From a virus (Duplodnaviria; Caudoviricetes): a stretch of DNA of 64,000 bases. The notes below the pieces were generated by a model. The model was not told the DNA's origin. It saw only the letters and a list, made by a program, of their open reading frames with translations, and searched no databases. The stretch spans positions 32,001 through 96,000 of IMG/VR virus record IMGVR_UViG_2615840593_000003; one strand, written 5' to 3'. Position numbers and translations under genes: made by a program. Of this stretch, positions 11,925-29,454 are shown one piece after another. Within the stretch, counting starts at the first letter, position 1. Each line of letters begins with the position of its first letter.

Positions 11925-11935
11925 TCAAATACCAT

Positions 11936-12244: not shown

Positions 12245-12492
12245 AAGTCATCCTCTCCTATCTCGCATAATCCTAACGCTATATTGATTGCATAAGCTAT
12301 TCTGTACTTATCTTCTAACTCTGTAATAAAATCAATTACTTCATTACAAATGTCATTTGGGTGTACTCCACTGTAAGCTTTAGCTATAGCACTAACTATC
12401 ACATCTGTTACATATCTACTCTGTTCAATTTTAGCTGTAGCTTGAAATGCCTTATCACGTAATTCCATTAACTCTTTTGATATTTTAATCAA
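12241..12492 (-). CDS. Hypothetical protein
   Basis: 83-aa ORF with RBS. Confidence 0.65.
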   Translation of the reverse strand: MIKISKELMELRDKAFQATAKIEQSRYVTDVIVSAIAKAYSGVHPNDICNEVIDFITELEDKYRIAYAINIALGLCEIGEDDL

Positions 12493-12519
12493 CGCTCATT
12501 CACTCCTTTGTTATCAATA

Positions 12520-12741
12520 TCAAACTTTGTTATTTAGTAATCTACCTTTTCTCGGTAATGTTATACTCAATACCCCATCAACTTTCAGTAATTCATTTTT
12601 ACTTTTATCTGTATCGATAAATAATATGTTTATTACTGGTGATTTATATGTAATTGAACCAAGCTTAGATAATTCTTCAAGTGTTTCTTTGTCCTTATAT
12701 GTAATTATGTATTGATAAGATGTATTTCTACTGGATCGCAT
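12520..12741 (-). CDS. Small protein resembling a stand-alone subtilase propeptide (I9-like fold)
   Basis: YIITYKD...LSKLGSITYKSPVINILFI...LLKVDGVLSI pattern; fold call tentative. Confidence 0.4.
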   Translation of the reverse strand: MRSSRNTSYQYIITYKDKETLEELSKLGSITYKSPVINILFIDTDKSKNELLKVDGVLSITLPRKGRLLNNKV

Positions 12742-12822
12742 TTCGTCTTATAAATGAATAACCATTTTCTCACCTCGATTCTTTGTTTGTATTTTTGAAT
12801 AAAAACATCCTATTATCGAAAG

Positions 12823-13041
12823 TTAAAATAATTCTCTTTCATCCTCATCTTCTCTATCAAAGTAGTAATCCTTAGAGTGGTTGTCTATATGTAGAAATTT
12901 CTTTATGCTATTTAAAGCATCTATCGAAGAGTCAAAGTGTTTTCTGACATGGTCTGCGAATTCTATACTAGAGTTAGACTGAGCAAGCTCACTTAAATTT
13001 CCATCTAAAATTTTAAACAATGAATTTAATTCTTTGCTCAT
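12823..13041 (-). CDS. Hypothetical protein
   Basis: 72-aa ORF. Confidence 0.6.
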   Translation of the reverse strand: MSKELNSLFKILDGNLSELAQSNSSIEFADHVRKHFDSSIDALNSIKKFLHIDNHSKDYYFDREDEDERELF

Positions 13042-13043
13042 AG

Positions 13044-13610
13044 TTATTTACCTACCAATCCGAAATAATCATTTAAATAATGATATTTTCTTTTATTTTT
13101 AGTGAATTTCTTTGTTTGATCATTCTTCTTTATATGTACAATTTTATTACCTATCACACGTATTTCCATCGAACCATAATTAAATACATGTCTTCTACTG
13201 AATACTTTTGGTTTCCCTTTACCAAAATTGCTTGATAGAATAACATTTCGAGTTAACTTCTTCTTAGTATCGTCAAATGAAGTATTTTCATTCTTTAAAA
13301 ATGTATTGCAGTAGTACTGATAAGCTTCTTCGGAAATCTCAAGTGGTTTATTTAATAAACGTTCCTCAACTTTTTTCCAATATACCTTTCTTTCCTCAAG
13401 TGTTGCTCTTCGAACAACACTCTTTAGAGGCTTATACTTTGTAGTTTTATTGTAGCCTACAAAGTTAGCAAGTTGATGTTTACCTTGACTATCAACTATA
13501 AGTACATCTCCACGTTTTAGATTTTTAATGCCAGTATTAAATCCGTACACTACCCCTTTGTCTTGTCCACTTATCAAATTAAAAGTAACTTCTGCGATCA
13601 TTTTCACCAA
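13044..13610 (-). CDS. Hypothetical basic protein
   Basis: 188-aa ORF coupled to the upstream gene. Confidence 0.7.
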   Translation of the reverse strand: MVKMIAEVTFNLISGQDKGVVYGFNTGIKNLKRGDVLIVDSQGKHQLANFVGYNKTTKYKPLKSVVRRATLEERKVYWKKVEERLLNKPLEISEEAYQYYCNTFLKNENTSFDDTKKKLTRNVILSSNFGKGKPKVFSRRHVFNYGSMEIRVIGNKIVHIKKNDQTKKFTKNKRKYHYLNDYFGLVGK

Positions 13611-13804
13611 TCCCCTTCCACTATTTTATTGTTTATCGATTCAGCTTCGTTCTCGACACTGTGCCATTCATTAGATATTTGAAGATTTAATTCTCCCATT
13701 TCTTGATAACCTATTTTCATTTGCTCGATCATAGCTTGTCTTAACTTGTCATCTATTATGGAATCATTACTTATTTGCTTTATCTCTTCAAACATTAACA
13801 ACAT
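13604..13804 (-). CDS. Orphan MazE/EndoAI-like antitoxin C-terminal domain
   Basis: EQMKIGYQEMGELNLQISNEWHSVENEAE resembles the B. subtilis EndoAI toxin-binding region (recalled as DLMRRGYMEMAKINLNISSEAHFAECEAE); no RHH domain. Confidence 0.75.
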   Translation of the reverse strand: MLLMFEEIKQISNDSIIDDKLRQAMIEQMKIGYQEMGELNLQISNEWHSVENEAESINNKIVEGDW

Positions 13805-13981
13805 CTCCGTTTCATTATTATGTATTTTATTAATTAATCACCGACATTTGCTACATAACAACTATTTATTTATAATGAGAATGTTATAGTTTTCATTTAT
13901 TTGTTTTCTTTGATAAATATATCTTAATCTACCAACCAATTAATTTCAAGTATTTTTTATGTATTTTATTAATTAATTTCC

Positions 13982-14176
13982 TTATGTATTCAACTTCTCA
14001 TTATTACCTAAACTACTGATATCGATGATAATAGCTACAATGACGCCAATAACACCTATTAAATTTGTACCTATTACTGCACTAATACTATGATAGTTTA
14101 CAAAGAACCAAAACCAAGACCAGAAAAATAGGCTACAGCTTGTGATTAGGATATTTCTTACTATAAATTCTTTCAT
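13982..14176 (-). CDS. Small membrane protein
   Basis: Two hydrophobic helices. Confidence 0.6.
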   Translation of the reverse strand: MKEFIVRNILITSCSLFFWSWFWFFVNYHSISAVIGTNLIGVIGVIVAIIIDISSLGNNEKLNT

Positions 14177-14448
14177 GGCTTACTCCTTAAATTTATTACT
14201 TTCACATCTTCATCACCAATATATCTTTTCAATTCCTCTAATTCTTGTTTAAATACAAATGTCTTACCGTAAATATCAGGTACTTCAACTAATAGATATC
14301 TACTATCATCTTTCTCTAAATCATGTATACATTGATTGCACATCTGCACTCCAGAGTCTCCAAAAGCATCGGTTGTCATATCATCTGATGGATAAACATC
14401 TTTACATCTAATACATTTTTTACAGTTCCAGTTCATAATCAATATCAC
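14173..14448 (-). CDS. Hypothetical zinc-finger protein
   Basis: CxxC...CxxC motifs. Confidence 0.6.
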   Translation of the reverse strand: MILIMNWNCKKCIRCKDVYPSDDMTTDAFGDSGVQMCNQCIHDLEKDDSRYLLVEVPDIYGKTFVFKQELEELKRYIGDEDVKVINLRSKP

Positions 14449-14694
14449 TCCTAAATATTTTTATAAAATTCCACTATTATAAAAGTGGTCAACAACTACA
14501 AAGTTGTGCTTAGTAATTACCACTCAACACATATTACTCTTTTTCTTACCGCACTTTGTACATTCTAAGTAAGGGAAATAACTTCGGTTATCTATCTCTT
14601 TATACTTATGTCCAAACAATAAACAAAAAAGAATGTTCATCATATTACCTCCTGTATATAATTTTTCAATAGTTTAAATAAAAGAGTGGTTTCA

Positions 14695-15297
14695 TTAAAA
14701 CTCAACAGTGATCGATTTATCCATCAAAATTTCATAACACTTAACTACCAATCTAATTTGATAAGCAATATCATCAAAAGCATCATGCTTACGTTCGCTT
14801 TCATCTGTTACTGACTCTTTAATCTCATCTTCAGTTAATCCTGATTTCATACTTGCCAATTCTAAAATTGTACGTACATCACGATCATTCTTATAATAAA
14901 TTGGATACTTCAATCCACTGCGCCCATTGAGATTAGTCTGTAATTTTGCATTATCGAATAGGATACCATTACCCCATAAGTAAACATCCTTCATGTCTCC
15001 TGTAGTTGATTGCGCTTCTAACCACTTATGCAATGCTTCAAATAAATTATATTCTTCATATGTACCTTTATTAATCAATTCGGTAAGCAATTCTTTATCT
15101 GTATTTAACCACCATTTTAAAGTTGAGCCATCAACATTCAAGTTGCTGTACTTATCAATATCACCTATTAAATTAATAGAATCATGCTTGTCCCCTGTTT
15201 GAATGTTGAAGCTCATTGCTGAAATTTGAAATACAGTCGCATTTTCTCCAGTACCTAGTGTTTCAATATCAACCATTATATCTTTACGCATATTCAA
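14695..15297 (-). CDS. DEDDh 3'-5' exo(ribo)nuclease
   Basis: MVDIETLG, WGNGILFD, RDVRT, HDAFDD. Confidence 0.85.
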   Translation of the reverse strand: MNMRKDIMVDIETLGTGENATVFQISAMSFNIQTGDKHDSINLIGDIDKYSNLNVDGSTLKWWLNTDKELLTELINKGTYEEYNLFEALHKWLEAQSTTGDMKDVYLWGNGILFDNAKLQTNLNGRSGLKYPIYYKNDRDVRTILELASMKSGLTEDEIKESVTDESERKHDAFDDIAYQIRLVVKCYEILMDKSITVEF

Positions 15298-15547
15298 TTC
15301 TCCTTATTATGTATATGTATTTTAAAATCCTACGTACTTCATCAATATTTGGAATGGACGACAATCGTTTGAAATGTATCGCATATTACTCCCTACCTGC
15401 CATCCATTCTTATTACTTTCTACAATGTTTTCATGCAGCTCAATCTCATTACTTGCTTTAAGAATCTTCTTTCCGTTAAATTTATTAAATTCCATCTTTA
15501 TATCCTCTTTTATGTATAATTTTAATAAAATCTATATATTATGTATT

Positions 15548-17420: not shown

Positions 17421-18395
17421 TTAGAAGTTTAATTTAAAATTTCCATACTCTTCTTCCATAAAATCTATATCGATGATCTCTTTAAATCTCATGAACGATG
17501 GATATTTTTTTCCTTTAATTTCCAAACTATATAGATCAAATTTTTCAGCTACTTTAGTTGCTATTTCTTTAGTTAGAACTCTATCGCTACCCATAAATTT
17601 ATTAGCATAATACATCACACCAGAGTTACCAATGGAAGTTGTAGTTATTTGTACGTCATCAAATGCAACCTTAACTACGTTTATAATAATGTTCTGTAAC
17701 ATTGGTATTGAAATACGTACATCGTTGCCGCCCACTCTACTTTTTCTGAATACATACTCTCCATCAACAATACGATTAGTTCTGCCATTTACACTTTTAT
17801 ATTCTTGTGTCTGATAAGTTTCAATAAGCATATCATATAGTTCTTTTGATATTTCTAACTGTCTGTTAGTCAAATCAACTTCATCACTTAGTAAAGAAGC
17901 GTAGTATTTATCTTCTCTCTCAGTTAAATCTTCTCTTCTTAAATTAATTATTTCTGAAAATTTATTTCCGCTAATACCCTCAAATAAGGCTAAAACCAAA
18001 GCTTTATCTCTTACATTGTTAATGTTTTCAAAGTACTTAAATAAATCATTTCTTGTATAATATTTAATTCCTTCTCTATACAAGTATTTAGAAACAAACT
18101 CAGTGTTTATAGTATCAATAATTGGATTAAGTGAACTCTCTCCATATCCATTATCTTTTGCCCATGTAATATAATTTTTTATAGTATTGAAGAAGTTTAC
18201 AGCAGAACGTTCTGTTTTTCTTTGTACCCAATAAAACAATTCTTCTAACATATCAAAGTCCATGTCAAATAAATCTTTACCTTTTTGAGCCTCAAATGAT
18301 TCTGTTCTTTTAAAATATAATCTATATTGATTTTTAGTTTCTTCAGCATGTTCTGAAGCTTTTAAAAAGGCTTCCTTATAATCGGCATTATACAT
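17421..18395 (-). CDS. yopR: YopR/MrpR-like master repressor (degenerate tyrosine-recombinase fold)
   Basis: MYNADYKEAFL N-terminus; RDKALVLALFEGISG lacks the catalytic Arg; third gene of the yopP-Q-R triad. Confidence 0.75.
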   Translation of the reverse strand: MYNADYKEAFLKASEHAEETKNQYRLYFKRTESFEAQKGKDLFDMDFDMLEELFYWVQRKTERSAVNFFNTIKNYITWAKDNGYGESSLNPIIDTINTEFVSKYLYREGIKYYTRNDLFKYFENINNVRDKALVLALFEGISGNKFSEIINLRREDLTEREDKYYASLLSDEVDLTNRQLEISKELYDMLIETYQTQEYKSVNGRTNRIVDGEYVFRKSRVGGNDVRISIPMLQNIIINVVKVAFDDVQITTTSIGNSGVMYYANKFMGSDRVLTKEIATKVAEKFDLYSLEIKGKKYPSFMRFKEIIDIDFMEEEYGNFKLNF

Positions 18396-18407: not shown

Positions 18408-19742
18408 CTATATTAGGCTTTCGAAATATTTAACAATACTGCTTCTATCTTTTTTAGACAGCTTACCAATATTCTTATTTAATAATTTATATTCATTCCA
18501 ACGAGTATTTTCAATGTGGAACTCATTAATATCTATAATTTTTTCTAATTCATCAAACTTCATTTCTTTATCATTCATCTTCTTCATTAATGCTAAATGA
18601 CCTTCAAAAATATCAGCATCAAAAAGAACTTTATATTCGTCATTTTCGTGCTTTCCAAAAATACCGAATAAATAGACTAAATATTCATTTATTTCCTCGG
18701 CAATTTTTCTAGCCTCTAATCTACTATTGATTTTGAAAATGTTGCTTATTGCAGTATATAAAGTGTTATAAGGGATAAATTCATTACCTTTTAGAGAATG
18801 CTTAATGTCTGTACTAGTTGTAATCCTATCTTTAAGTTCACCTTTTGACTTTAAAATGCTTATTACATCGCTTGCGTAATTTTCTTCTTTCAACTCATTG
18901 GCTCTACCTTTTGTCAAAGGAGTATGCTTATTTAAGTCTAATTGATATCTCTTAATTTCCTCATCTGATTTGTTGGATATAATTACAGGAAAAGACCCTT
19001 GAATACCTTTATCTCTAATATACGCACTATAAGTGCCCAAAGTTCTATGCATACCATCAACTATGTCTAATATAGTTCCTTCTGTTATAGTTAATGTATT
19101 CTTATCATTATCATAAATTAATTCTGACTCTTCTTCAGAACTAAATTGCTTGGCATTAAAAATCACAGTGGATGGTCTTAGTTTATTCTTTAAAGTTAAA
19201 TTTCTTATTTCATTTACTTTCTTTTGTAACACAATAGGTACTTCTGTCACTAATCCATATCTTGCAACCTTACGCATACCTCTTTGTACATTTGGGTTAT
19301 AATCTAATTTACCATATCTAAAAAGTCTACCGATTTCTTGTTTTGTAAAAGATGTTAAATAATATCCATCACCCAAATCAATAACATTTTGCTTTACCAT
19401 TGGAAAATCTATTTCATCCATCGATTGAACATCTACAAATTGGTAACTTTCAAATTCTTTTTTCTCACGTTCTGTAAACCAATCATTCATCCACTCGTGT
19501 TGATCAATACCTAACTTAATAACTAGTTGTTGACCAAACAGCGCTAGCTCTTCCCCGGTTAACTTCCCTACATTATTCGAATTGTTAAATAGTGAGTAAA
19601 TACTAGTTTTTTTAATTCCATGTTTACCATTTAAATGTTCAACTATAAGTTCTACTTCTTCTTTCTTAACTGTTGAAGCAAATAGATGTATCAAACTTTT
19701 AATTTCTGTTTCTAATTGCTCTCTTGTTTTATTAATTTGCAT
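18408..19742 (-). CDS. yopQ: YopQ-like DGQHR/DndB/ParB-fold protein
   Basis: YNPNVQRG, LDIVDGMHR; position between yopP-like and yopR-like genes. Confidence 0.7.
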   Translation of the reverse strand: MQINKTREQLETEIKSLIHLFASTVKKEEVELIVEHLNGKHGIKKTSIYSLFNNSNNVGKLTGEELALFGQQLVIKLGIDQHEWMNDWFTEREKKEFESYQFVDVQSMDEIDFPMVKQNVIDLGDGYYLTSFTKQEIGRLFRYGKLDYNPNVQRGMRKVARYGLVTEVPIVLQKKVNEIRNLTLKNKLRPSTVIFNAKQFSSEEESELIYDNDKNTLTITEGTILDIVDGMHRTLGTYSAYIRDKGIQGSFPVIISNKSDEEIKRYQLDLNKHTPLTKGRANELKEENYASDVISILKSKGELKDRITTSTDIKHSLKGNEFIPYNTLYTAISNIFKINSRLEARKIAEEINEYLVYLFGIFGKHENDEYKVLFDADIFEGHLALMKKMNDKEMKFDELEKIIDINEFHIENTRWNEYKLLNKNIGKLSKKDRSSIVKYFESLI

Positions 19743-19795: not shown

Positions 19796-20872
19796 TCATA
19801 GGTAATCACTCGTAGAAGCTTTATTTTTTATCTTATTATTTAGTAAAAGTAACATCTCTGGACGCATCTCTTCTAAGCATTCTAACAATAATTTATGTGA
19901 AACTGTTTTATATAATTCTTCAGAAGTGTTCATTTTGGCAGATATAATACCTGTGACATTTAGATTAGTTAATCTTAGATATCTCATAGTTGTATTAACA
20001 TTACTATGCCTTGCTTTTTTCATTGCTGAATCTATACAATTGCCATTGTTCAAATAACACATAGTTACTGCTAATTTTTTAAATGAGTGAAATGTGTAAT
20101 TAATATCTGTATGATTCCATAATTTATCGCCTCTCTCCATTATATCCACTAACTGTTTATATGTGAGAGTGAATAGCTTAGTGTTATTTCCAATAGTTTT
20201 GAGTTGTAGAAGCTCATTATACAAATCCTTACTTATTTTATCAATCCATTCCTTATTGCCTTTACCTTTGTTGTAACCATGAGATTTCATTATAACTCCA
20301 TCTTCAACTTCAGTAAAATTAGACCATTCAACTCTCAGTAGTTCACTAGCTCGTAAGCCTGTTTCAATAGCTAACTTTATTATTAATGATTTCTCAAGTC
20401 CTTGTTCATCTTTAGAAAAGTATTTTACATACTGCATAGCTAAATCAAAAGGAATCATTTCTATTTCTTCTCTTTTATCAGGTAAAGACTTAAGCAAATT
20501 TAATTTATCTAAATCATAAGTAATAATGTCCCAATTTTTTAGATACCTTATCAATTCTTTTATTACTGAGATATGTCTGTTAATAGTTGCATTCTTATAC
20601 TTAGGTTCATCATCTTTATTTAATTCATCGTATAGTCCATTGAAGTAGTCTTTTAATACAGATACATTTAAATTTTCGATATCTTCTTTTGAAATGTATC
20701 TGTATTCATTTTTTCTAATTAGCTCCTTAAATACTTTATTTAAACTGCTTCTATAGTTCACAAAACTACTTTCAGACTTCTTTTTGTATTCAATTAAAAA
20801 ATCATCTATATGATTTCCAATATAAGTAACCATTTGAACAGCATTCTGATTTGTATTAAGAGCAGCAACCAT
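19796..20872 (-). CDS. yopP: YopP-like tyrosine recombinase with most catalytic residues retained
   Basis: SAM-like N-domain (ATINRHISVIK); TGLRASEL, KGKGNKE, HSFKK (HxxK variant), ARHSNVNTTMRY. Confidence 0.85.
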   Translation of the reverse strand: MVAALNTNQNAVQMVTYIGNHIDDFLIEYKKKSESSFVNYRSSLNKVFKELIRKNEYRYISKEDIENLNVSVLKDYFNGLYDELNKDDEPKYKNATINRHISVIKELIRYLKNWDIITYDLDKLNLLKSLPDKREEIEMIPFDLAMQYVKYFSKDEQGLEKSLIIKLAIETGLRASELLRVEWSNFTEVEDGVIMKSHGYNKGKGNKEWIDKISKDLYNELLQLKTIGNNTKLFTLTYKQLVDIMERGDKLWNHTDINYTFHSFKKLAVTMCYLNNGNCIDSAMKKARHSNVNTTMRYLRLTNLNVTGIISAKMNTSEELYKTVSHKLLLECLEEMRPEMLLLLNNKIKNKASTSDYL

Positions 20873-20907
20873 AACTTACAACCACCTTTGCGATTTTCTT
20901 ATTAATA

Positions 20908-20961
20908 ATAGTATATCCATATTTTTGTTAATTGTAAAGCGAATTATGTATTTTATTATTT
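20908..20961 (-). promoter_or_regulatory. Promoter of the yopP-Q-R-like operon with adjacent AATAAAATACATAA element
   Basis: Minus strand aataaaatacataattcgc-TTTACA...TATACT. Confidence 0.6.
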
Positions 20962-21022
20962 ATTACTTGAGAGCCGACCTCGTTTTATCGACTCTCAGTG
21001 TTTTATAATATGTTCCTTTTAT

Positions 21023-21442
21023 TTAACCTTTTAACATTAATTCAATCTCATCCAATTCCATTTGAACCTTTTTATCCTCAGAGAAGAAAGTATCAAGCTT
21101 TGTTTCTAAAGCTTTTAGTGTCTTCTTTTCTTCTTTAACAATAATGTTTTGTATTTGTGCATTTAAATCGCTTACCCATTCAGAGATATGGTGTCCATCA
21201 ATAATTGCATATTCAAATAAATCTTCATCATATGAATTCAATCCACGACCAATCCCCATAAGTTTACCAATTAGAACTGCAATATCAGCTTTAGATAGAA
21301 CGTTAAAGTTATATACTACACCTTCAAAGTTTAGAATTTTCTTCGTAATAAACTTTGATGGATGGTCTTTCTCTGCAATAATATTTTTCTTTTCTTCGAT
21401 TACCTTTTTTAAAGCTTCAATACGAGCGTCATTATTTACCAT
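21023..21442 (-). CDS. Hypothetical coiled-coil protein
   Basis: 139-aa ORF; stop abuts site 21005. Confidence 0.75.
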   Translation of the reverse strand: MVNNDARIEALKKVIEEKKNIIAEKDHPSKFITKKILNFEGVVYNFNVLSKADIAVLIGKLMGIGRGLNSYDEDLFEYAIIDGHHISEWVSDLNAQIQNIIVKEEKKTLKALETKLDTFFSEDKKVQMELDEIELMLKG

Positions 21443-21444
21443 AA

Positions 21445-22617
21445 TTATTTATCCTCCTTGAACTTTTGTCCATTTTCTAAATACAAGACTTGATACATCG
21501 GTTTATATACGTCAAATAGATGTCTGAAGTTATCAAACTTCACAGTCTCTTCGTACTCTACTTCTCTTAATTGTACCTGTGAAGTCCAAGACCAAGATGG
21601 TCGGTACTCTTCTTGTTTTTTATATTTAAAATTAATATATGGCTTAGGATTTTCTTCATTTGTAACCTTAACTTCAATTTGATGGAGATATCCTGTTACA
21701 TTTGTATTAACATCAGCCGTTCTCCAACTACTCCATCGACGGTTGTCATGATCTTCTAGATTTAATTCTTTTCGAACATACTCATCAAATTCCTCGTAAG
21801 TGAATGGTATATATTGAGTTGCTGAAATATTAACAGGAGAAAATGCTCTTTGTTTTTCTAGATAAGCATACATTTCTGCATATTCATCATGAGTATTATC
21901 TTCTATTTCTGCAATGAATTTCTGCCAGTTACCACCTTCTACATGACAACTATACGTTCCATCATCTTTTTTACTAACAAAGAAAAATTTCTTTTTGTCT
22001 TCTTTGTTATAAGTATAATAATCTTCTCCATTTGGTAGTTTAACTTTTAGACTCCAACTATACTCATAGTGGTCATAACGACCCATGTATATCCATTGTT
22101 CATTGTTTTTGGTTAGATAAGTTGCTCCGACTTTAATAGTACGAGCACCAATTTTAAATCTGCTATGTATTTTTTCACTGTATTCTAAAATTGATTTATA
22201 ATCTGCTGATTCGACGGGCAGAAGAACTAAATCTTTTCCAGACCAACCATAAACAAACTCTCCTTCTAAACCCTTGCCTTTAGAAGAAGTAGCATTCTCC
22301 AAAATAAATAATAGATTCTCAATTGTTACTTCAAACTCAAATCCACGAGGATCATATACTCTTACATACGCCTGACGATGATTCCAACAAGAAACATAGT
22401 CTCCAACTTTTTTGTTAAGAACGAACCCTTCCGTTGGTACATTTTCAAAAATGTCATTACCTAGTTCTTTATCTCGCCAATTCTGCCAACTTGTTTCTTT
22501 GCGTAATACTCCTTTTTCGTCAAAGTAAATTATATATGCTAACTTTTGAGTATATGTATTGCTTCGCTTTTGATAACCTATATTAATTTTTTCAGGAATA
22601 AAAATAGTAGATTTCAA
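21445..22617 (-). CDS. Phage protein of unknown function
   Basis: 390-aa ORF, RBS gaggag. Confidence 0.8.
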   Translation of the reverse strand: MKSTIFIPEKINIGYQKRSNTYTQKLAYIIYFDEKGVLRKETSWQNWRDKELGNDIFENVPTEGFVLNKKVGDYVSCWNHRQAYVRVYDPRGFEFEVTIENLLFILENATSSKGKGLEGEFVYGWSGKDLVLLPVESADYKSILEYSEKIHSRFKIGARTIKVGATYLTKNNEQWIYMGRYDHYEYSWSLKVKLPNGEDYYTYNKEDKKKFFFVSKKDDGTYSCHVEGGNWQKFIAEIEDNTHDEYAEMYAYLEKQRAFSPVNISATQYIPFTYEEFDEYVRKELNLEDHDNRRWSSWRTADVNTNVTGYLHQIEVKVTNEENPKPYINFKYKKQEEYRPSWSWTSQVQLREVEYEETVKFDNFRHLFDVYKPMYQVLYLENGQKFKEDK

Positions 22618-22669
22618 TTAACAAACTCCTCTTTTATGTATTTTTTATAATAGTTAAATTTTATATAAT

Positions 22670-23173
22670 CTAATATGTGAATTGTCCTACATCTTTAAAC
22701 TTTGCTTCTGAATATGATCCATAAGTATTCTTATAGTACTTAAATAATTTTTTCTGAATCGCTTTCAAAGAATCGTCGCTAAATTTCAAGCCTTCACAAG
22801 ATAAGTAAATATCATCGACCTTGGATGTACTGTTATAATCGTCTATAACAACTACTTCTCTACCGTCAATTTTATAAGTATCATTATCAGACTCATCATT
22901 AATTATGCTGTTAAATATATCTCTCACCTCTTCTGGAGAATAACTGTCTAAAGCTTTCTCTACCACTTGGATACCGTTTACTTCGTAGTATAAAGAATTT
23001 TTACATCTCATACTTTTTCTACAGGAGAAATCAATCACTACATATAAATTATCTCTAAAATTAGCAATAGCTTCACCACAGAAACATCCATCAGTATGAA
23101 CCTTACCAGACTTAAATTCCTTTTTAATTTTCTTTATTTCATCAACTGTTAAATTTAATTCAATTACATTCAT
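22670..23173 (-). CDS. Hypothetical protein
   Basis: 167-aa ORF between sites 22647 and 23201. Confidence 0.7.
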   Translation of the reverse strand: MNVIELNLTVDEIKKIKKEFKSGKVHTDGCFCGEAIANFRDNLYVVIDFSCRKSMRCKNSLYYEVNGIQVVEKALDSYSPEEVRDIFNSIINDESDNDTYKIDGREVVVIDDYNSTSKVDDIYLSCEGLKFSDDSLKAIQKKLFKYYKNTYGSYSEAKFKDVGQFTY

Positions 23174-23217
23174 CTTAGATATACTCCTTTTATGTATTTA
23201 ACAATATTTAGTTATTA

Positions 23218-23406
23218 TTAATAAATGCTTTCTATTTCATCAATTGTTAGTTTTACTATGTTCCCATAATCAGTTTTACCGACATACACATCTTTTCCTA
23301 ATTTATCATGATAATATCTATCGATAATTTTAGCTTTATTGTTCTTTATGACACCATTTCCAATTGATTTAAAAGACATTGTTTTGCCAAACATACGTAA
23401 ACTCAC
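23218..23406 (-). CDS. Hypothetical protein
   Basis: 62-aa ORF; stop overlaps site 23201. Confidence 0.55.
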   Translation of the reverse strand: MSLRMFGKTMSFKSIGNGVIKNNKAKIIDRYYHDKLGKDVYVGKTDYGNIVKLTIDEIESIY

Positions 23407-23408
23407 TC

Positions 23409-23645
23409 CTATTTACAGTAATTTAATGCTTCACTTTCAAACTCGTAATTATGTTCTTTATCACACTTTGGGCAACGTACTCTATATTGTTTTATAAAAT
23501 CAATATCAAAACCATTATAGTATTCTTTATAAAACCTACCTAAATAAGTCCATTCATGAACACATTCAGCTTGCTTTAATTCCTTTTCACGCTGAATTTC
23601 TCTTAACTGTCGTCTGTGTGAAAATTCACTTATCCATTTGAACAC
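23409..23645 (-). CDS. Small zinc-ribbon protein
   Basis: CVHEW...RCPKCDK. Confidence 0.65.
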   Translation of the reverse strand: MFKWISEFSHRRQLREIQREKELKQAECVHEWTYLGRFYKEYYNGFDIDFIKQYRVRCPKCDKEHNYEFESEALNYCK

Positions 23646-23820
23646 TGAACCATCTCCAGTTGATTCAATTGATCCTTTAATCCAATGTAATCATTTATTG
23701 CAAACAGCAAATTATCTAATTCTCTTTTAGAACAACGATTTGACGGACTACCATTTAAACGTACAATTAACTTATGCATTACTGTATACCTCTTTTCATT
23801 AATATATCTCTTTTATGTAA

Positions 23821-24081
23821 TTACAATCCTCTTGCTAATCGTTCTTTTCTAATCTCATTAAGCATTACCATAGGTGAATCAATTTCATATTGTAATTTCA
23901 TTATCTCTTTATTTAATCTGTCAATTTCATTTTCTTGCTTACTTATTATACTCCATAGCTTATCATTATCTTTTAATTCACCAGTTAAGTCTGTTACATC
24001 ATCTAAAAACAATACTTTTCCTTTTTCATATCTTCTATCTATTAATTTAAATAATATCCTCTCAATAAAATTCAACCCCAC
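23821..24081 (-). CDS. Hypothetical protein
   Basis: 86-aa ORF, RBS ggagga. Confidence 0.65.
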   Translation of the reverse strand: MGLNFIERILFKLIDRRYEKGKVLFLDDVTDLTGELKDNDKLWSIISKQENEIDRLNKEIMKLQYEIDSPMVMLNEIRKERLARGL

Positions 24082-24087
24082 TCCTCC

Positions 24088-24321
24088 CTACTCTTCATAA
24101 TAATCACTGATATCTGCGCCCAATGAGTTACAAGTTAATGATAATGCAGACATTAATCTCTTATTCTTATCTTGTAGCTCTTTAATGTATAAATTAGCAA
24201 AATAAAACACTTCTGTTGGGCAGCAAGCCATTGATTCCGTACACTTCCCATCAACTACTTCAGGTATTAACTCCCTCATTTCAACTGCTTGATCGGTCAT
24301 CGTCTCTTCTGTTGATTTCAT
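24088..24321 (-). CDS. Hypothetical protein
   Basis: 77-aa ORF with RBS. Confidence 0.65.
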   Translation of the reverse strand: MKSTEETMTDQAVEMRELIPEVVDGKCTESMACCPTEVFYFANLYIKELQDKNKRLMSALSLTCNSLGADISDYYEE

Positions 24322-24349
24322 GATTACACTTCTCCTTTATCAATTCAAA

Positions 24350-24547
24350 TTAATGTATAACTACAATGTCTTCATTATCGTAGAACTCATGAAGAGTAAA
24401 TGCTTTTAAATCTTTTTTAAAATATTCACCACCTAGCCTAGAGTGAACTTTATTTACAGCTTCTTTTTTATTACTAGACTTTACAAGAAACCATTCGTTA
24501 TGTGTCATTGGATGCCTGTCAAATACCTTTACAATATAATCATTCAT
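24350..24547 (-). CDS. Hypothetical protein
   Basis: Start at MNDYIV with RBS ggagggg just after site 24563. Confidence 0.6.
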   Translation of the reverse strand: MNDYIVKVFDRHPMTHNEWFLVKSSNKKEAVNKVHSRLGGEYFKKDLKAFTLHEFYDNEDIVVIH

Positions 24548-24811
24548 TACATTTCCCCTCCAATAATACATCTGTTTTATGTAATTAATTATTTAGTATT
24601 GATGACCTTCATTATCCCAAAGTGCTTCTGTAACTTTAACGACTTTACCAAATTCTTCTGCTTGTTTTATTGCTCCACCGATATACCCTGCGTAAAACTG
24701 CTTTCGAAGTGTCTTATTTTTATCAACATCATAAATGCAACACGTTGTATAAAGTAGCTGTACCAATAATCATCATTATCCCTCCATTTTTTTCTTCGTA
24801 AAAGACGGCTT

Positions 24812-25285
24812 TTATTTAACTTCCCACTCGTTGTTTATATCTTCTAACTCCCAACTTTCAATACCACTGTGTTGCATTTTGTAATCATTAAGCAATCCAA
24901 ATTTACGCAACTTATATAAATCATTCAATTCTAAGTCAAAGAATTTATCACTAATTTCCATTACTGCAATTTCAAGTATAAATTGCATCATTCTCATATG
25001 ATTCAAATATGTATTTGTTCCACATACATGATAATATCCATCCTCTTCATATGGATATCTTTCACCTTTGAACCAGAAGTGTGAACATCCATCCCATTTA
25101 ACACTAGCGATTGCAAAAAAGCCTCTACTTGCTACACTTCCGTCAGTATTCCATGAACAAGGTATGTATGCTTTGCACTCAATATAAGTTTTTTCTGCAA
25201 TATAATCTACCTGACCTATTACATCATGTTCATTTTCTTTAAATGAAACCAGATTAATTCTTTTAATATTCTTCATTCCAAACAC
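24812..25285 (-). CDS. Hypothetical protein
   Basis: 157-aa ORF filling sites 24798-25297. Confidence 0.7.
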   Translation of the reverse strand: MFGMKNIKRINLVSFKENEHDVIGQVDYIAEKTYIECKAYIPCSWNTDGSVASRGFFAIASVKWDGCSHFWFKGERYPYEEDGYYHVCGTNTYLNHMRMMQFILEIAVMEISDKFFDLELNDLYKLRKFGLLNDYKMQHSGIESWELEDINNEWEVK

Positions 25286-25310
25286 CCCTATCTCTAATAA
25301 AATGCGATTA

Positions 25311-25928
25311 TCATTTAATATCTGTAAAACTATAATTCTCTGGTAAATGAATTTGAAAATTATATTTACCCTTTTGGTAATGAGGTAAATCTTTTATTAA
25401 TTCTTGATATGTAATATAAGGCGTATCACCTTTGACTAAATCAAAGTTTGGAGTTGTTTTTACTGTCTCTGTGATGCCATTACCATTTAATTTATATGAA
25501 ATCGTCATAGTAGTTAGTAAGCTGCTATTTATTGATCCTGTACCAAAGATAAGGCTTCCTGATACTTCTACTTCTGCATCAATCTTAATGTAGAATATTT
25601 CAGCTTTAGTCGTTGGTAAGGTACTAATATAAGGGTCACCATATTTAGTTTTATAATCAGCAATTTCTTTATTGTTCTTTTCATTAGCCACAGAATACTT
25701 TGATGCTGCATTAATTACTGGTAAAAATATAACCATAATACTAAATAATACAGCAAGTCCAAGTGTACCAATGAATTCAAAATTTTCTCCTATCCATAAG
25801 CAAAAAATACTCAGCACAAGAAACAGTCCGATATATAAAACATATTGCCACCAAGTAAAACTAGCCCAAAAATGACCTTCATGTAATCCTACGCCATTTC
25901 CTATCTTAACAATTTCTTCGTAATTCAT
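25311..25928 (-). CDS. Membrane protein
   Basis: Two TM helices plus a soluble C-domain; RBS aggag. Confidence 0.75.
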   Translation of the reverse strand: MNYEEIVKIGNGVGLHEGHFWASFTWWQYVLYIGLFLVLSIFCLWIGENFEFIGTLGLAVLFSIMVIFLPVINAASKYSVANEKNNKEIADYKTKYGDPYISTLPTTKAEIFYIKIDAEVEVSGSLIFGTGSINSSLLTTMTISYKLNGNGITETVKTTPNFDLVKGDTPYITYQELIKDLPHYQKGKYNFQIHLPENYSFTDIK

Positions 25929-26169
25929 TACACCTCTCCTTTATTCATATTCAATCGCAATAATGTTAGACAATACAAACATGATACTTTTACCACTATT
26001 TAAATTTATTGGTACAGTCTATTCAGCATTTCCTGATGCAGCCCTTGTAATTTCGATCATTACACTTTCAGCTTCATTTCCTTCAAAAACATAATCCTCT
26101 TTTACTGTGTAAATTTTTAATCCCATCATTTCACCTACTTTATGTATTTTATTTTATAAAATGAAATTA

Positions 26170-26580
26170 TTATTTAACACTGTCACTGATCAATGGTACT
26201 AACTTTTCAACTCTAATTGCATCTACTACACATGTATCTCTAATATCTTCATTTGCTAAATCAAAAATTGCTTCATCAATACCTTGCTCTAAATAATTAA
26301 CTCTAGATTTTAATTCATCATTTTCGACTCTGAGTTTATTGTTATCATTTAAGTTCCAATGTTTTTCTCCGTATTTATTCAAATTTAAAATTAGCCAAGC
26401 ATTTACTAATGATCGTTTGATATCTCTTAGTTGACTTTCCATATACAATTCATTGAATCCATTTTGCAACTGTCCGTCTTCGTACAACTTAAATAAAGTT
26501 TTAAACTCGGTAACTATTTCTCCTACAAAATCCATTTCTTGCTTTACTTTTTGCAATTCATAAACTTCATAATTTAACAT
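26170..26580 (-). CDS. Hypothetical protein
   Basis: 136-aa ORF; stop inside site 26156. Confidence 0.7.
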   Translation of the reverse strand: MLNYEVYELQKVKQEMDFVGEIVTEFKTLFKLYEDGQLQNGFNELYMESQLRDIKRSLVNAWLILNLNKYGEKHWNLNDNNKLRVENDELKSRVNYLEQGIDEAIFDLANEDIRDTCVVDAIRVEKLVPLISDSVK

Positions 26581-27084
26581 ATCTCCATCTCCTTTTTAAA
26601 ATTTCTTCTTTCATAGTATTTATTTTTCTATCACAAATATTGTATCGTGCAACTTAAATCTATTACATTTTATACACCTATAATTTTCTGAGTATGTTAA
26701 TGTATTACAAGTAAAGCATTTCGTCATTTTAGAATCATCTACTACTTTATTAACTTGCCCCATTAAATTCTCAAATGAACTATTATCTTGTTTCATATGT
26801 CCTCCTCCAAACTCCAAGTGAAATGTAGATACCGTTACCCTTACTCCGTTTCATAAAAGTAACTTATTATTTAGACTCATTTTCATCTCTAGCTCCATTC
26901 ACTTGATTATATACTTTGTTTATACCCCTTCTAATATCTTCGATACTCGCATTGCTTATGACATGCTGATAATCAACTTTTTTAGTTACCTCTGTAACAG
27001 AAATCCGTCTATCTATTAATTTTATTATACATTCTCTTAAACTTTTTATATTTATCCCCTCTTTTCATAAAAGCGTTCTATTAT

Positions 27085-27372
27085 TTAGCATACTCCATCC
27101 CATTGCTTAAATTTCTTCTCACTGACAATTTCATTTTCTTTCAAAATAAATGCACTTGATCCCTCATATTCTAGGACTGTATTTTTTGAAGCTAATACAT
27201 AGTCATAAAATTCTGGAGCATTTGATTTAAATTTTTTTAAGTATAGAGAGACTAGTTTATTTGAAAATAGCTTTCTTTCTACTTTGTAAATATGTACCTC
27301 TATACAAGAGTAACTATTATCTATGGCATCTATCCACTTTTTTATTTTTATAAAACTCATTTCCTTTATCAC
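27085..27372 (-). CDS. Hypothetical protein
   Basis: 95-aa ORF; stop abuts site 27067. Confidence 0.6.
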   Translation of the reverse strand: MIKEMSFIKIKKWIDAIDNSYSCIEVHIYKVERKLFSNKLVSLYLKKFKSNAPEFYDYVLASKNTVLEYEGSSAFILKENEIVSEKKFKQWDGVC

Positions 27373-27441
27373 TAATCACAGGGAATTTTATCATATTTCA
27401 CTCTCCATTCATTTCCGATAAAATCGTTATTTTACGGAAAG

Positions 27442-27711
27442 TTAATCCACTTTATTTTTCTTCATCTTCTCCAATTGGTCTTCTGTGAAGGCGAATGACG
27501 TACATCCGATAGAATTCCATTCATCTATAATATGGTCTGGTATCATTTCTTCTACAGTAATTTTTACAAAATTACCATCGTACTCAGATAATAATTCATG
27601 TAAATATTCTCCACCAACTATTCCTATTTCGGCATCCTTCTTATTATCCCATAAGCCTAACTTTTCATATGACCCACCTAGATAACCTTTAAATTCTTTT
27701 TTATTTATCAC
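27442..27711 (-). CDS. Hypothetical protein
   Basis: 89-aa ORF, RBS aggagg. Confidence 0.7.
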   Translation of the reverse strand: MINKKEFKGYLGGSYEKLGLWDNKKDAEIGIVGGEYLHELLSEYDGNFVKITVEEMIPDHIIDEWNSIGCTSFAFTEDQLEKMKKNKVD

Positions 27712-27748
27712 CTAATATACCTCCTTTAATTTTGATAATATCGAATTA

Positions 27749-28060
27749 TTATTCAGTTGTAACACCATTAGACTTTAAATACTCTACCATCACATTTACT
27801 ATTGCATTAGATGGTGAATACCCAAATCCACTGTACTCAACTTCATCTTTTAAAATCGACGCACTGTAATTTAATCCATTTGATATTTTACTAACTAAAC
27901 ATTCTTCAAATTGCTCCAATAAAATCCACGCGTCATCTATATCTGTATTAGGATGCCAACTTGATTTATTTATCAAACCATTATCAGTAACCCATTTTCC
28001 AGATTCTTCATCCGTTGTCCAATTCATAATTTCTATAGCCAGAACATCTCTAATATCCAT
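27749..28060 (-). CDS. Phage ABA-sandwich (BC1872-like) protein
   Basis: LAIEIMNW...WHPNTDIDDAWILLEQF...PSNAIV pattern. Confidence 0.65.
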   Translation of the reverse strand: MDIRDVLAIEIMNWTTDEESGKWVTDNGLINKSSWHPNTDIDDAWILLEQFEECLVSKISNGLNYSASILKDEVEYSGFGYSPSNAIVNVMVEYLKSNGVTTE

Positions 28061-28149
28061 ATTTATTGAGCCTCCAATTTAAAATAAAACTATTATTATA
28101 CTCTTCAATATTCAAGTCAATATTCCTTCTTATAAAATACGAATATTAT

Positions 28150-28608
28150 CTAATCTTCTCCCCATTGAGAAACACCTACTAATAAAGCTCTAGCTCTTAA
28201 AATTTCACTATTATATTTCTCTTCATCAAAGTCTTCATCTGAAAAAGCATCGAAAATTATTTCCTCAATATCAACTATATAATCCGGAGAAAGACTATTT
28301 AGTACTTTATATTGATTTGGCTCTCCCTCTATATTATAATCATCCACTTTCAATAAATTTTTGGGAACACTTAAAGTAAAAATTACACCTTCAGTTTCGA
28401 TCATAGGAAATTCTATTTCACCTGCATCTAATGATTTTTGTTCTTCATAAAGAAGTCCACCTGTCCAAATAAAAGCATATTCTTTTGCCTTTTCATAATC
28501 AGTAGTAACGTAAACATGATTCCTATGTCTCTGAGCTACTAATCCTTCTTGTTCAATTTTATCCAAATAGTGAGAAGATGTACCGTGATACACAGTAGTC
28601 ATTTTCAT
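28150..28608 (-). CDS. ADP-ribosyltransferase-fold protein (Tpt1/KptA C-domain or ART-like)
   Basis: VYHGTS...IEQEGL...VYVTTDYEKAKEYA...NQYKV; start at MKMTT with RBS aggagg. Confidence 0.65.
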   Translation of the reverse strand: MKMTTVYHGTSSHYLDKIEQEGLVAQRHRNHVYVTTDYEKAKEYAFIWTGGLLYEEQKSLDAGEIEFPMIETEGVIFTLSVPKNLLKVDDYNIEGEPNQYKVLNSLSPDYIVDIEEIIFDAFSDEDFDEEKYNSEILRARALLVGVSQWGED

Positions 28609-28839
28609 ATGTAAAATCCTCCTAATATTTAGTAATGTTTGATTTCTTAACCTAAGTATAATTAATAAAATACATAAAATCAAGTATAAATTATGTATTT
28701 CTTTGTTTAATTTTATAAAAGGGAAATATTATAGAAAATGCATGAACAACATTACCATCAACAGGAAAATTCTTATAGAATATCATACTTAATTTGGTAT
28801 ACTATACATTGTAACTATTTTCTAGGAGGAATAAGGTAA

Positions 28840-29445: not shown

Positions 29446-29454
29446 TAACAAAAG

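Follow-up and report, generated by a model that had tools for sequence, protein, structure and literature searches.

Introduction

A gene for a YopP-like tyrosine recombinase was found next to a dense run of short repeats (6-6-6 sites) in a 154.8-kb SPbeta-like phage of Lysinibacillus. The locus raises the question of whether the recombinase acts on these repeats. YopP (SroD) is the product of a core gene of SPbeta-like phages, located in an operon studied intensely for the arbitrium lysis-lysogeny switch; the accessible parts of PMC8612738, PMC10516654, and preprints of 2021 and 2025 assign it no function. Positions refer to the window, i.e., the whole stretch of 64,000 nucleotides that was analysed, unless genome coordinates are indicated. 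A megablast search of phage records with this region gave no matches, and relatives were obtained by a peptide-pattern scan of viral contigs. Gene calls were crude ORF picks.

The YopP-like protein

19796..20872, minus strand: yopP/sroD-like gene, 358 aa, ATG start at 20872 (ORF call)
20873-21022: non-coding DNA upstream of the yopP-like ORF, part of the interval originally flagged

Judged from its sequence, the ORF at 19796..20872 is the YopP/SroD orthologue of this phage. Its product was 29% identical to SPbeta YopP (2e-14), each protein being 358 aa long. Pfam search yielded Phage_integrase (PF00589) at 3.1e-11 (43.8 bits, cut-off 27.1) and the N-terminal SAM-like domain Phage_int_SAM_1 at 2.4e-6. 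The catalytic positions R, K, H-x-x-K, H, and Y, which the sequence-only reading had described as kept, were all present in the translation (TGLR, KGKGNK, HSFK, ARH, and MRY). An alignment of 25 rows, consisting of the query and 24 of the 46 homologues found, showed that R174, K204, H262, H289, and Y298 are invariant. K265 was near-invariant (at least 90% of rows), with Arg in P0040. The YopP-like protein thus has Lys265 where H-x-x-R requires the second catalytic Arg (R-II). SPbeta YopP likewise reads HSFK, and R-II was basic in all seven phage YopP orthologues (Lys in six, Arg in that of Geobacillus E3). When Lys is engineered at R-II of Cre, Flp, or lambda Int, catalysis is strongly lowered.

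The single protein had no match among PDB sequences (phmmer), but the family profile matched XerA (5hxy, 4.9e-7), a XerC-like protein (4a8e, 9.2e-6), and XerH (5jjv, 7.4e-4). In the profile alignment, 'FHsfkK' fell onto 'PHVLRH' of XerA; therefore, Lys occupies the position of the second Arg. The AF2 model (pLDDT 84.3) had a two-domain fold with core-binding and catalytic domains. Its best Foldseek matches were XerH-difH, XerA, Tn1549 Int, Cre, and lambda Int (E-values of 6e-9 to 1e-7), with IntI (2a3v) only at rank 43. By sequence and modelled fold, the YopP-like protein is a Xer-like tyrosine recombinase with an active site predicted to be complete except for the Arg-to-Lys replacement at R-II.

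The yopPQR operon and its putative control elements

18408..19742, minus strand: yopQ/sroE-like gene, 444 aa (BLASTP with SPbeta YopQ, 29% over 366 aa, 3e-31)
17421..18395, minus strand: yopR/mrpR/sroF-like gene, 324 aa, homologue of the recombinase-fold repressor (MrpR_N_CB 1.3e-16, MrpR_C_cat 2e-6)
20910..20938, minus strand: putative sigma-A promoter of yopPQR, read by eye (-35 TTTACA at 20933-20938, 17-nt spacer, -10 TATACT at 20910-20915)
20944..20963, minus strand: motif A copy, in sense TTAAATAATAAAATACATAA, directly before the -35 box; it departs from the motif at one position
20969..20996, minus strand: hairpin with G+C (GAGAGCCGA ... TCGACTCTC), likely the terminator of the upstream gene, read from sequence
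Genome 2390-4411, minus strand: large serine integrase (phrog_95, 4.4e-87)
Genome 111801-112829: second tyrosine recombinase, by position the counterpart of SPbeta YomM (Pfam Phage_integrase, 1.9e-21)

The order yopP-yopQ-yopR was the same in SPbeta, a Staphylococcus SPbeta-like phage, and E3, and in the phages screened the best match of each of the three proteins was the cognate gene. The YopQ-like protein had no Pfam family above the cut-off. Its homologues are labelled 'DNA sulfur modification' in phage records, and it contains DGMHR, which we take to resemble the DGQHR motif of DndB/ParB-like proteins. The YopR-like protein matched SPbeta YopR over 303 aa (BLASTP, 24%, 7e-12). SPbeta MrpR retains only three of seven catalytic residues according to the accessible text of PMC10516654. 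A similar loss in the YopR-like neighbour may be assumed mainly by analogy with SPbeta MrpR; it was tested weakly here, as the hhalign comparison of the YopP profile with the YopR-like protein (probability 0.5%) was too weak for residue mapping.

Motif A had 30 matches against 0.41 expected, and its copies adjoined -35 boxes. The copy at 20944..20963 is probably the operator of the MrpR-like repressor. The SroF box of phi3T, as given in the available part of bioRxiv 2025.11.27.690993, resembles motif A, and it is likely that motif A, not the 6-6-6 sites, is the counterpart of the SPBRE/SroF box within the window.

Anatomy and placement of the junction sites

21001..21026: first junction site of the dense block (core 21005-21022, ATAATA-TGTTCC-TTTTAT), 133 bp from the yopP start codon (20872)
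21001..48425: dense block of 34 junction sites in 27.4 kb among small minus-strand genes, each spacer distinct
1465..15546: twelve more junction sites downstream of yopPQR, with zero inside the operon
53791..53816: lone junction site located among the window's block of plus-strand genes

The 6-6-6 sites were 26-bp elements of the form TTAAATAAWA-N6-TWTTATWWAA, of which the phage genome contained 64 (59 intergenic). All 64 had a 10-6-10 anatomy, with degenerate inverted 10-bp arms and a fixed 6-bp spacer; next to the spacer, position 10 was A in 62 sites and position 17 was T in every site. A generic count of 10-bp near-palindromes at spacer 6, an insensitive method, gave 187 vs. 188. The sites were then scored by a position-weight scan and exact-dyad enrichment, and the family had 114 strand matches against a mean of 4.6 in five Markov shuffles. 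We found no description of these sites in the openly readable literature.

The sites lay between consecutive genes, bounded by a stop codon on one side and the next ribosome-binding site on the other. The site at 21001..21026, which reads TTAAATAAAA-GGAACA-TATTATAAAA in sense, overlaps the stop codon of the ORF at 21023-21442. The outer arm positions were skewed relative to the sense strand, and a sense-only motif, AAATACATAA, followed 15 of 58 early sites within 60 bp, ahead of the ribosome-binding site. This skew and the association with AAATACATAA suggest a role of the sites in expression. Two such roles were considered and rejected. As RNA hairpins or terminators, the sites performed no better than expected: the arm pairing sum, i.e., the Watson-Crick-paired fractions added over the ten arm position pairs, was 7.0 vs. 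7.47 under independence, and the mean MFE was −0.62 vs. −0.54 kcal/mol for shuffles. As promoters, read by eye, they had a −10-like arm only 0–10 nt from the ribosome-binding site and no properly spaced −35.

The sequence-only reading had likened yopP and its nearest site, placed about 130 bp from the start codon, to intI beside attI, and had left integration to a separate serine recombinase. The latter was borne out by the serine integrase at genome 2390-4411, and YopP is not needed for integration. The distance was also real (133 bp), but with 34 sites in 27.4 kb, i.e., one every ~0.8 kb, a site this close to yopP is expected. The intI-attI picture was not supported: the sites recur throughout the block, show no attC-like folding, and carry ordered individual tags.

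Spacer tags and mosaic joints between related phages

Within a genome, no spacer was used twice: 64 of 64 were distinct in the phage studied (G000) and 59 of 59 in its relative G001. Between these two genomes, 40 of the 59 G001 sites had a partner with an identical spacer, and collinearity of the pairs held at each of the 39 steps (controls 2 and 0). In the 40 pairs the arms were 88% identical, and the 40-bp flanks were mostly at or near the random level (17 pairs below 0.65 on both sides; random 40-mers had a mean of 0.38 and a 95th percentile of 0.625). For 29 of the 40 pairs, neither neighbouring gene was homologous by BLASTP. The spacer GGAACA of the site nearest to yopP was kept at the equivalent position in two relatives, G001 (40296) and L008 (9900). 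Ten tags were common to these three genomes in unchanged order, with slot lengths of, e.g., 1247, 403, and 225 bp.

The laboratory phages SPbeta and phi3T had 26 identical-spacer pairs (control 0). At the site edges, the identity of their flanks jumped between 1.00 and ~0.3 (random). Three cases were informative as to the arms, and in each of them the differing arm was on the side lacking homology. Between distant phages, spacer sharing was not above the control level. The sites are barcoded mosaic joints, at which the tags stay constant in order and the intervening genes are swapped.

Site-bearing junctions comprised 17 homology breaks and two continuous cases and site-less junctions 23 and 13, respectively, a marginal difference (Fisher p = 0.058), and 25 of 66 HSP ends lay within 40 bp of a site (19.2 ± 3.6 expected). 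Pairing of sites by synteny, with the spacer ignored, gave only 20 pairs, two of them mispaired by a shifted paralogous HSP. The unique collinear spacers and the homology breaks at the site edges are consistent with recombination that depends on spacer homology.

Distribution of sites and candidate genes

ATAAAA-N6-TTTTAT was the top enriched dyad in SPbeta (34 vs. 2.3), Tsamsa (23 vs. 1.6), the Staphylococcus SPbeta-like phage (17 vs. 2.9), and Geobacillus E3 (30 vs. 5.7). It was also enriched in phi3T (14 vs. 1) and LIBA6276 (19 vs. 6). The dyad count was zero in each of SPP1, SPO1, and phi105, and these phages were missing from the organism tally of 85 YopP-positive tblastn records. The proposed co-occurrence of yopP and arrays held in one direction: every array-bearer among the sampled phages had a YopP-type gene, that of LIBA6276 being known only as an annotated xerC adjoining a YopR-like gene. 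It failed in the other, since Lactococcus WRP3 and Brevibacillus Sundance had a YopP homologue and no such array. The top dyad of WRP3, considered as an array site, proved to represent ordinary extended −10 promoters.

In the seven phages screened, YopR-like and HU-like (YonN) genes tracked the arrays better than YopP did. Over the sampled phages, the second tyrosine recombinase also followed the arrays as well as YopP or better. YopR-like genes were present wherever arrays were seen, a YonN-like gene was found in six of six array-bearers, and WRP3 had neither gene and no arrays. YonO-type RNA polymerase was discarded as a correlate, being detected only in G000, G001, and SPbeta; Tsamsa, E3, and the Staphylococcus phage gave no match.

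Proposed mechanism and alternative explanations

We tentatively favour the reading that a phage tyrosine recombinase uses the sites as core sites for tag-matched cassette exchange, with YopP as the leading candidate for the enzyme, while giving it less than even credence. Two recombinase subunits would bind the arms, and strands would be exchanged across the 6-bp spacer; Xer sites have 6-bp central regions as well. Since exchange would require identical spacers and all spacers of one genome differ, no two sites of a genome would be partners for each other. Partners would be found where related phages or prophages reside together and carry equal tags, and cassettes would be swapped in register, much as heterospecific lox sites are used in recombinase-mediated cassette exchange, but in nature. 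YopP heads the candidates because it is Xer-like, conserved, without an assigned function, and dispensable for integration. Its assignment to the sites is the weakest step, and YopP is a candidate beside the second tyrosine recombinase, another binder, and short-homology recombination, over none of which the sites are tied to it. A more elaborate form, to which we give less credence still, is that SPbeta-like phages of Bacillus, Lysinibacillus, Staphylococcus, and Geobacillus own a cassette-exchange system with slot-specific spacers, in which YopP with its R-II Lys swaps slots in register, perhaps helped by the dead paralogue YopR or by YopQ, and the tags block self-deletion.

A serious possibility, though again one we would not call probable, is that the sites are bound by a protein other than a recombinase, such as a regulator, the ParB/DndB-like YopQ/SroE, or the HU-like YonN, and serve expression or DNA architecture. 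The joints would then have arisen via short homology (e.g., with a single-strand-annealing protein) or selection for intact genes, and YopP would be otherwise employed in the lysogeny operon. The fixed position between stop codon and ribosome-binding site, the sense skew of the outer positions, and the occurrence of YonN-like genes in all six array-bearers screened and not in WRP3 point in this direction. AAATACATAA, placed after 15 of 58 early sites, corresponds to the arrangement of SAS and ESAS in Cluster K mycobacteriophages, as described in the accessible part of PMC3203893, and SroE is reported as a second repressor in the available text of bioRxiv 2025.11.27.690993. Motifs can also shuffle genes without a site-specific enzyme, as do the promoter/stem-loop motifs of T4-like phages in the portions of PMC2839356 and PMC4122927 available to us. 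Laboratory phi3T-SPbeta hybrids had crossovers within identical stretches of 1.4–13 kb, like ordinary homologous recombination. The spacers argue against this explanation: a spacer not read by a dimeric binder would be expected to diverge more quickly than its arms, yet 40 spacers were identical between arms of 88% identity and unrelated flanks, and an expression signal has no need of spacer uniqueness. YopQ in particular was not detected in Tsamsa, which has arrays. Short-homology recombination at the conserved islands would give the same joints, but islands of 18–26 bp are short for homologous recombination.

Unlikely, in our estimate, is a role of YopP as a Cre/Xer-like single-site enzyme for genome circularisation or replicon dimer resolution, unrelated to the arrays. 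XerA and XerH are its closest solved relatives, and YopP homologues occur at the very start of the record in the Lactococcus WRP3 group (22 records), whose members we take to be virulent and in which arrays were not seen. Near yopP, however, no conserved lone candidate site was found besides an ordinary array member, and the arrays would be left unexplained.

Somewhat more improbable is that the enzyme acting on the sites is the second tyrosine recombinase (genome 111801-112829) instead of YopP. Its Pfam match is stronger than that of YopP, and YomM-type genes were detected in G001, Tsamsa, the Staphylococcus SPbeta-like phage, E3, and WRP3. The last of these lacks arrays, however; the G001 match consists of two adjoining pieces (91285-92040 and 92039-92287) and may be broken, the arrays there being intact; and the protein of the phage studied was not detected with SPbeta YomM at 1e-3.

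Binding of the sites by the recombinase-fold repressor YopR/MrpR/SroF, which the sequence-only reading had offered as its alternative, is very improbable: YopR-like genes do accompany the arrays, and the phi3T SroF box has the 26-bp length of a site (bioRxiv 2025.11.27.690993, accessible part) and abuts one at 107931 and 121064, but SroF acts as a monomer on an asymmetric box according to the same part of that preprint, the ten ChAP-seq peaks of SPbeta MrpR are all SPBRE in the available text of PMC10516654, the SPBRE motif found de novo (ACAAATACAAATAATATGTATA) is asymmetric, overlaps the extended −10, and has 10 copies, the nearest strict sites lie 83 to 3008 bp from these copies, and SPbeta has 38 strict sites, far above ten peaks.

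The tagged junction sites are a defined, testable object, present also in the laboratory phages SPbeta and phi3T, for which genetics, ChIP, and assays of recombination are routine. If they are recombinase substrates, spacer heterospecificity would organise in-register cassette exchange in nature, of which we know no earlier example, and would explain mechanistically how large temperate phages come to be mosaic exactly at gene boundaries in their accessory regions. Should they not be substrates, it would still have to be explained why slot-specific spacers are so strictly conserved.

Comparison with known systems

The Xer/dif system resembles the one described here in the best sequence and fold matches of the YopP-like protein (XerA and XerH) and in the inverted arms, 6-bp central region, and invariant adjoining bases of the sites. 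The arms of difH differ slightly, as do the two arms of a junction site. A dif site, however, occurs once per replicon and serves dimer resolution, whereas here 64 sites have 64 central regions, and the YopP-like protein has Lys for the second catalytic Arg.

Integrons likewise combine a tyrosine recombinase with nearby small variable genes parted by imperfect inverted repeats. In contrast to attC, which acts as a folded single strand, the junction sites do not fold; cassette order is interchangeable in integrons, whereas the junction sites are ordered and individually tagged; and no special attI-like site was found, that at 21001..21026 being an ordinary family member with its own conserved tag.

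In the PeSL of T4-like phages, conserved intergenic motifs beside variable genes also mark the joints of shuffling; according to the accessible parts of PMC2839356 and PMC4122927, they consist of an early promoter and a stem-loop and are thought to act by homologous recombination. The junction sites differ in having no stable stem, no recognisable promoter spacing, and locus-specific spacers. The SAS of Cluster K mycobacteriophages is, like AAATACATAA, an asymmetric sense-only repeat before start sites, and about half of SAS copies have an ESAS upstream, an imperfect inverted repeat with 17 bp arms and a variable spacer of 4–13 bp that travels with particular gene families (PMC3203893, available part). 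By comparison, the junction sites all have a 6-bp spacer, and their tags hold their positions as the neighbouring genes change.

The SPBRE/SroF box is also an A+T-rich repeat of ~22–26 bp, found in the same phages and bound by a recombinase-fold protein, but in the accessible portions of PMC10516654 and bioRxiv 2025.11.27.690993 it is asymmetric, a monomer binds it, and its ~10 copies are located in promoters. The junction sites are pseudo-symmetric, 4–6 times more numerous, and of a different motif.

Recombinase-mediated cassette exchange is an engineered Cre/Flp method using heterospecific spacer variants of lox or FRT, and we know of no natural genome-wide version. The phages resemble it in that cassettes lie between sites with the same arms and different spacers; in the putative exchange proposed here, as in the engineered one, recombination between identical spacers only would give an in-register swap and no deletion.

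Phage record and gene content

The window covers bases 32001-96000 of a 154,764-bp virus record with a G+C content of 30%. Genes between approximately 1.6 and 81 kb are on the minus strand, and those past 81 kb are on the plus strand (genome coordinates; gene calls were longest-ORF picks and are crude). The record encodes a large serine integrase (673 aa; phrog_95, 4.4e-87), a DNA polymerase, a RecJ-like exonuclease, a ribonucleotide reductase, and an FtsK-like protein, and the homologues of its YopP-like protein carry Lysinibacillus names. On this gene content and these names, the record is an SPbeta-like temperate Lysinibacillus phage. Kinship to SPbeta itself is distant (29%, 29%, and 24% identity for YopP, YopQ, and YopR, respectively). 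The following genes are located in the window:

17421-18395, minus strand: YopR/MrpR-like protein
18408-19742, minus strand: YopQ-like protein
19796-20872, minus strand: YopP-like tyrosine recombinase
47013-48071, minus strand: GmrSD_N-domain protein at the edge of the early block (352 aa, 8.4e-15)
61206-63959, plus strand: YonO-type RNA polymerase (917 aa; Pfam RdRP 1.5e-16; 29% identity to SPbeta YonO, a single-subunit RNA polymerase)

GmrSD_N is found at the N terminus in a family of modification-dependent restriction enzymes. A 558-aa protein outside the window (locus L001, genome 6949-8625) has HNH/homing-endonuclease family matches and adjoins the ribonucleotide reductase genes; in SPbeta, introns and an intein split the reductase genes.

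Anatomy of the junction sites

The site that the sequence-only reading placed at 21005 is real, being the core of a 26-bp element (21001-21026). A weight-matrix scan yielded 114 strand matches vs. 4.6 in shuffles. The matches represent 64 distinct junction sites; 59 are intergenic according to the crude ORF calls, and the minus-strand half of the genome contains 58. Read in the sense direction, the consensus is TTAAATAAWA, six variable bases (the spacer), and TWTTATWWAA, with A at position 10 in 62/64 sites and T at position 17 in all 64. The upstream gene usually takes its stop codon from the left end of a site, and 0-30 nt separate the right end from the ribosome-binding site that follows. 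A hairpin reading was rejected, as arm complementarity did not exceed the independent-column prediction and the predicted RNA folding energy equaled that of shuffles. The inner W positions (9 and 18) are anti-correlated (Watson-Crick pairs 0.25 vs. 0.50 expected), so that each site combines an ATAATA arm with an ATAAAA arm, either of which can come first in the direction of transcription. This anti-correlation was absent from the SPbeta sites. The unequal arms may be due to two different subunits or to perfect palindromes being avoided.

The decamer AAATACATAA, over-represented about 20-fold by itself, occurs on the sense strand only, usually 0-10 nt ahead of a ribosome-binding site, and follows 15 of the 58 early sites within 60 bp downstream. 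Examples from the whole-genome search are at window 7287-7306, 9243-9262, 16617-16636, 26140-26159, and 58986-59005. The motif AAATACATA was found 51 times in the early half (2.6 expected; 2 antisense) and 29 times in the late half (2.0 expected; 0 antisense); the early region of SPbeta likewise has more copies than expected (12 vs. 1.5). Two sense-only 9-mers, CTCCCCTAC and TCCCCTACT, occur 9 and 11 times (0.05-0.1 expected) in the late half (genome 81.5-148.5 kb, mostly outside the window). Four overlapping head-to-tail copies of a ~31/84-nt repeat (ATTCTATA...) at window 48124-48353, within the large intergenic region that separates the divergent gene blocks, could be iterons or regulator sites.

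Spacers as position-specific tags

All spacers are distinct within a genome, both in the phage under study (64) and in its 121,875-bp relative (59), whose YopP, YopQ, and YopR share 69%, 57%, and 49% protein identity with those of the former. Forty of the 59 sites of the relative match a site of the studied phage by identical spacer, collinear in 39/39 steps; reversed and reverse-complemented controls gave 2 and 0 matches. Arm identity over these pairs is 88%. The 40-bp flanks, at a cut of 0.65 identity, were similar on neither side in 17 pairs, on one side in 19, and on both in 4; the 95th percentile for random 40-mers is 0.625, which means that several of the one-sided calls are only shared signals. 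Neighboring genes had a BLASTP match at 1e-3 for neither gene in 29/40 pairs, one in 7, and both in 4, a search that may overlook homology of small proteins. With a third genome included, ten tags are common in the same order (slot lengths between sites are, for example, 1247, 403, and 225 bp), and further tags are common to genome pairs in varying combinations. SPbeta and phi3T have 26 same-spacer pairs among 33 and 38 sites (control 0): in nine, identity is 100% as far as the site and at random level past it; in six, it is limited to the 18-26-bp site; and in three, the spacer is common and the differing arm is that of the non-homologous side. Identical, ordered spacers beside differing arms and genes make the spacer the best-conserved part of the element. 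In these comparisons, covering two phage pairs and one triple, the spacer marks a genome position, not a gene.

YopP-like recombinase

The ORF at 19796-20872 encodes 358 aa with Phage_integrase and SAM-like domains. The recombinase residues named in the sequence-only reading are present: in an alignment with 24 of the 46 homologues found (down to 33% identity), R174, K204 (in GKGNK), H262, H289, and Y298 are invariant. The lysine of H-x-x-K, K265 in nearly all rows and arginine in one (P0040), sits at the second-arginine position, since in profile matches to solved structures (XerA, a XerC-like protein, and XerH) FHSFKK falls on the XerA motif PHVLRH. Lysine also stands there in the orthologues of the 121,875-bp relative, SPbeta, WRP3, Tsamsa, and a Staphylococcus SPbeta-like phage, and arginine in that of Geobacillus E3. 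Retention of a basic residue throughout the orthologues argues for a working active-site pocket rather than a decayed one. The AlphaFold model (pLDDT 84.3) has XerH-difH, XerA, Tn1549 integrase, Cre, and lambda Int as nearest folds. The parts consulted of PMC8612738, PMC10516654, and 2021 and 2025 bioRxiv preprints give YopP no function past "XerC-type integrase domain".

Arrays and recombinases across phages

In an exact-dyad enrichment test, ATAAAA-N6-TTTTAT ranked first in four phages; others were scored against the same pattern read backwards.

Dyad counts in other phages
SPbeta: 34 observed, 2.3 expected
Tsamsa: 23 observed, 1.6 expected
Staphylococcus SPbeta-like phage: 17 observed, 2.9 expected
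Geobacillus E3: 30 observed, 5.7 expected
phi3T: 14, reversed control 1
LIBA6276: 19, reversed control 6
SPP1: 0, reversed control 2
SPO1: 0, reversed control 0
phi105: 0, reversed control 0
Brevibacillus Sundance: 0, reversed control 4

The dyad was not enriched in Lactococcus WRP3 by the exact-dyad test, and the top dyad of that phage was rejected as an array of this type, being ordinary extended -10 promoters. By tblastn in seven phages, a small co-occurrence sample, YopP was found in 7/7, YopQ was not found in Tsamsa and WRP3, and YopR and the HU-like YonN were missing from WRP3 only. For the YonO-type gene, tblastn gave matches in the studied phage, its relative, and SPbeta but none in Tsamsa, the Staphylococcus phage, E3, and WRP3. 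Thus, every sampled phage with arrays carries a YopP-type gene, but YopP also occurs where arrays are lacking. The distribution of YopR and YonN follows that of the arrays no less closely.

The tblastn screen also detected a second tyrosine recombinase, of YomM type, in the relative, WRP3, Tsamsa, the Staphylococcus phage, and E3. The studied phage has a second tyrosine recombinase of its own (342 aa; Phage_integrase 1.9e-21), which lies among late genes outside the window, at genome 111801-112829 (locus L003, 17801-18829). It is the positional counterpart of SPbeta YomM and a rival candidate for acting on the junction sites.

Possible function of the junction sites

Xer-, Cre-, or Int-type enzymes usually act on a pair of inverted arms that flank a fixed 6-bp spacer, with invariant bases next to it, and exchange by them needs identical spacers. 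Because the junction sites have such an anatomy and spacers that are unique per genome yet kept between genomes, we rank site-specific exchange by any tyrosine recombinase first, tentatively and at slightly less than an even chance. The spacer pattern is the design expected if same-tag sites swapped cassettes in register, unique spacers preventing self-deletion. That YopP in particular carries out the exchange, as the sequence-only reading proposed, is less likely still.

Ranked second are binding sites combined with short-homology recombination. Some results fit less neatly. Homology breaks outnumber continuity 17 to 2 at site-bearing junctions and 23 to 13 at those without a site (p = 0.058, a trend only), and 25/66 HSP ends lie within 40 bp of a site vs. 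19.2 +/- 3.6 expected. Crossovers in three laboratory-evolved phi3T-SPbeta hybrids fall inside stretches of identity 1.4-13 kb long, the outcome expected of general homologous recombination, and neither support nor refute site-specific exchange.

Probable repressor operator

Downstream (3') of the yopP-like gene are the YopQ-like gene and a gene whose product matches both Pfam MrpR families, an order also seen in SPbeta, a Staphylococcus phage, and E3. This MrpR/YopR-like repressor had been suggested as an alternative ligand of the junction sites. In the portion of PMC10516654 consulted, ChAP-seq of MrpR in SPbeta gave ten peaks, at the operator SPBRE. Derived from the ten named promoters, SPBRE is ACAAATACAAATAATATGTATA running into an extended -10 (10 copies) and differs from the motif of the 38 SPbeta dyad sites (strict pattern). 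In phi3T, monomeric SroF recognizes an asymmetric box of 26 bp (2025 bioRxiv preprint, section 5). In the studied phage, sigma-A-like -35 boxes, among them the one of the yopP operon, are preceded at a distance of 4-6 bp by the 20-bp repeat TTAAATAATAAAATACATAA (30 matches vs. 0.41 expected). Copies are at window 2873-2892, 20944-20963, 36767-36786, 40489-40508, 49873-49892, and 58937-58956, among others. The repeat resembles the SroF box, and its first half is common to the left arm of the junction sites. It probably serves the MrpR-like repressor as operator and would be the counterpart of SPBRE and the SroF box. With SPBRE unlike the dyad sites and TTAAATAATAAAATACATAA the likely operator here, binding of YopR to the junction sites is unlikely.

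At phi3T 107931 and 121064 (loci L065 and L066), the published 26-bp SroF box (AGAATAAAAATAAAATTACT) abuts the left arm of a junction site, and at 105166 and 125051 a similar sequence comes after the site. Such pairs may be composite modules of repressor operator and junction site.

Comparison with known systems

The proposed likeness to an integron, with intI beside attI, fails: the phage sites do not fold, are ordered, and include no special site beside the recombinase gene. At one site per 0.8 kb, a site 133 bp from yopP is unremarkable. The layout of junction site plus AAATACATAA is like that of the SAS/ESAS repeats of Cluster K mycobacteriophages, which, in the part of PMC3203893 consulted, are thought to concern translation.
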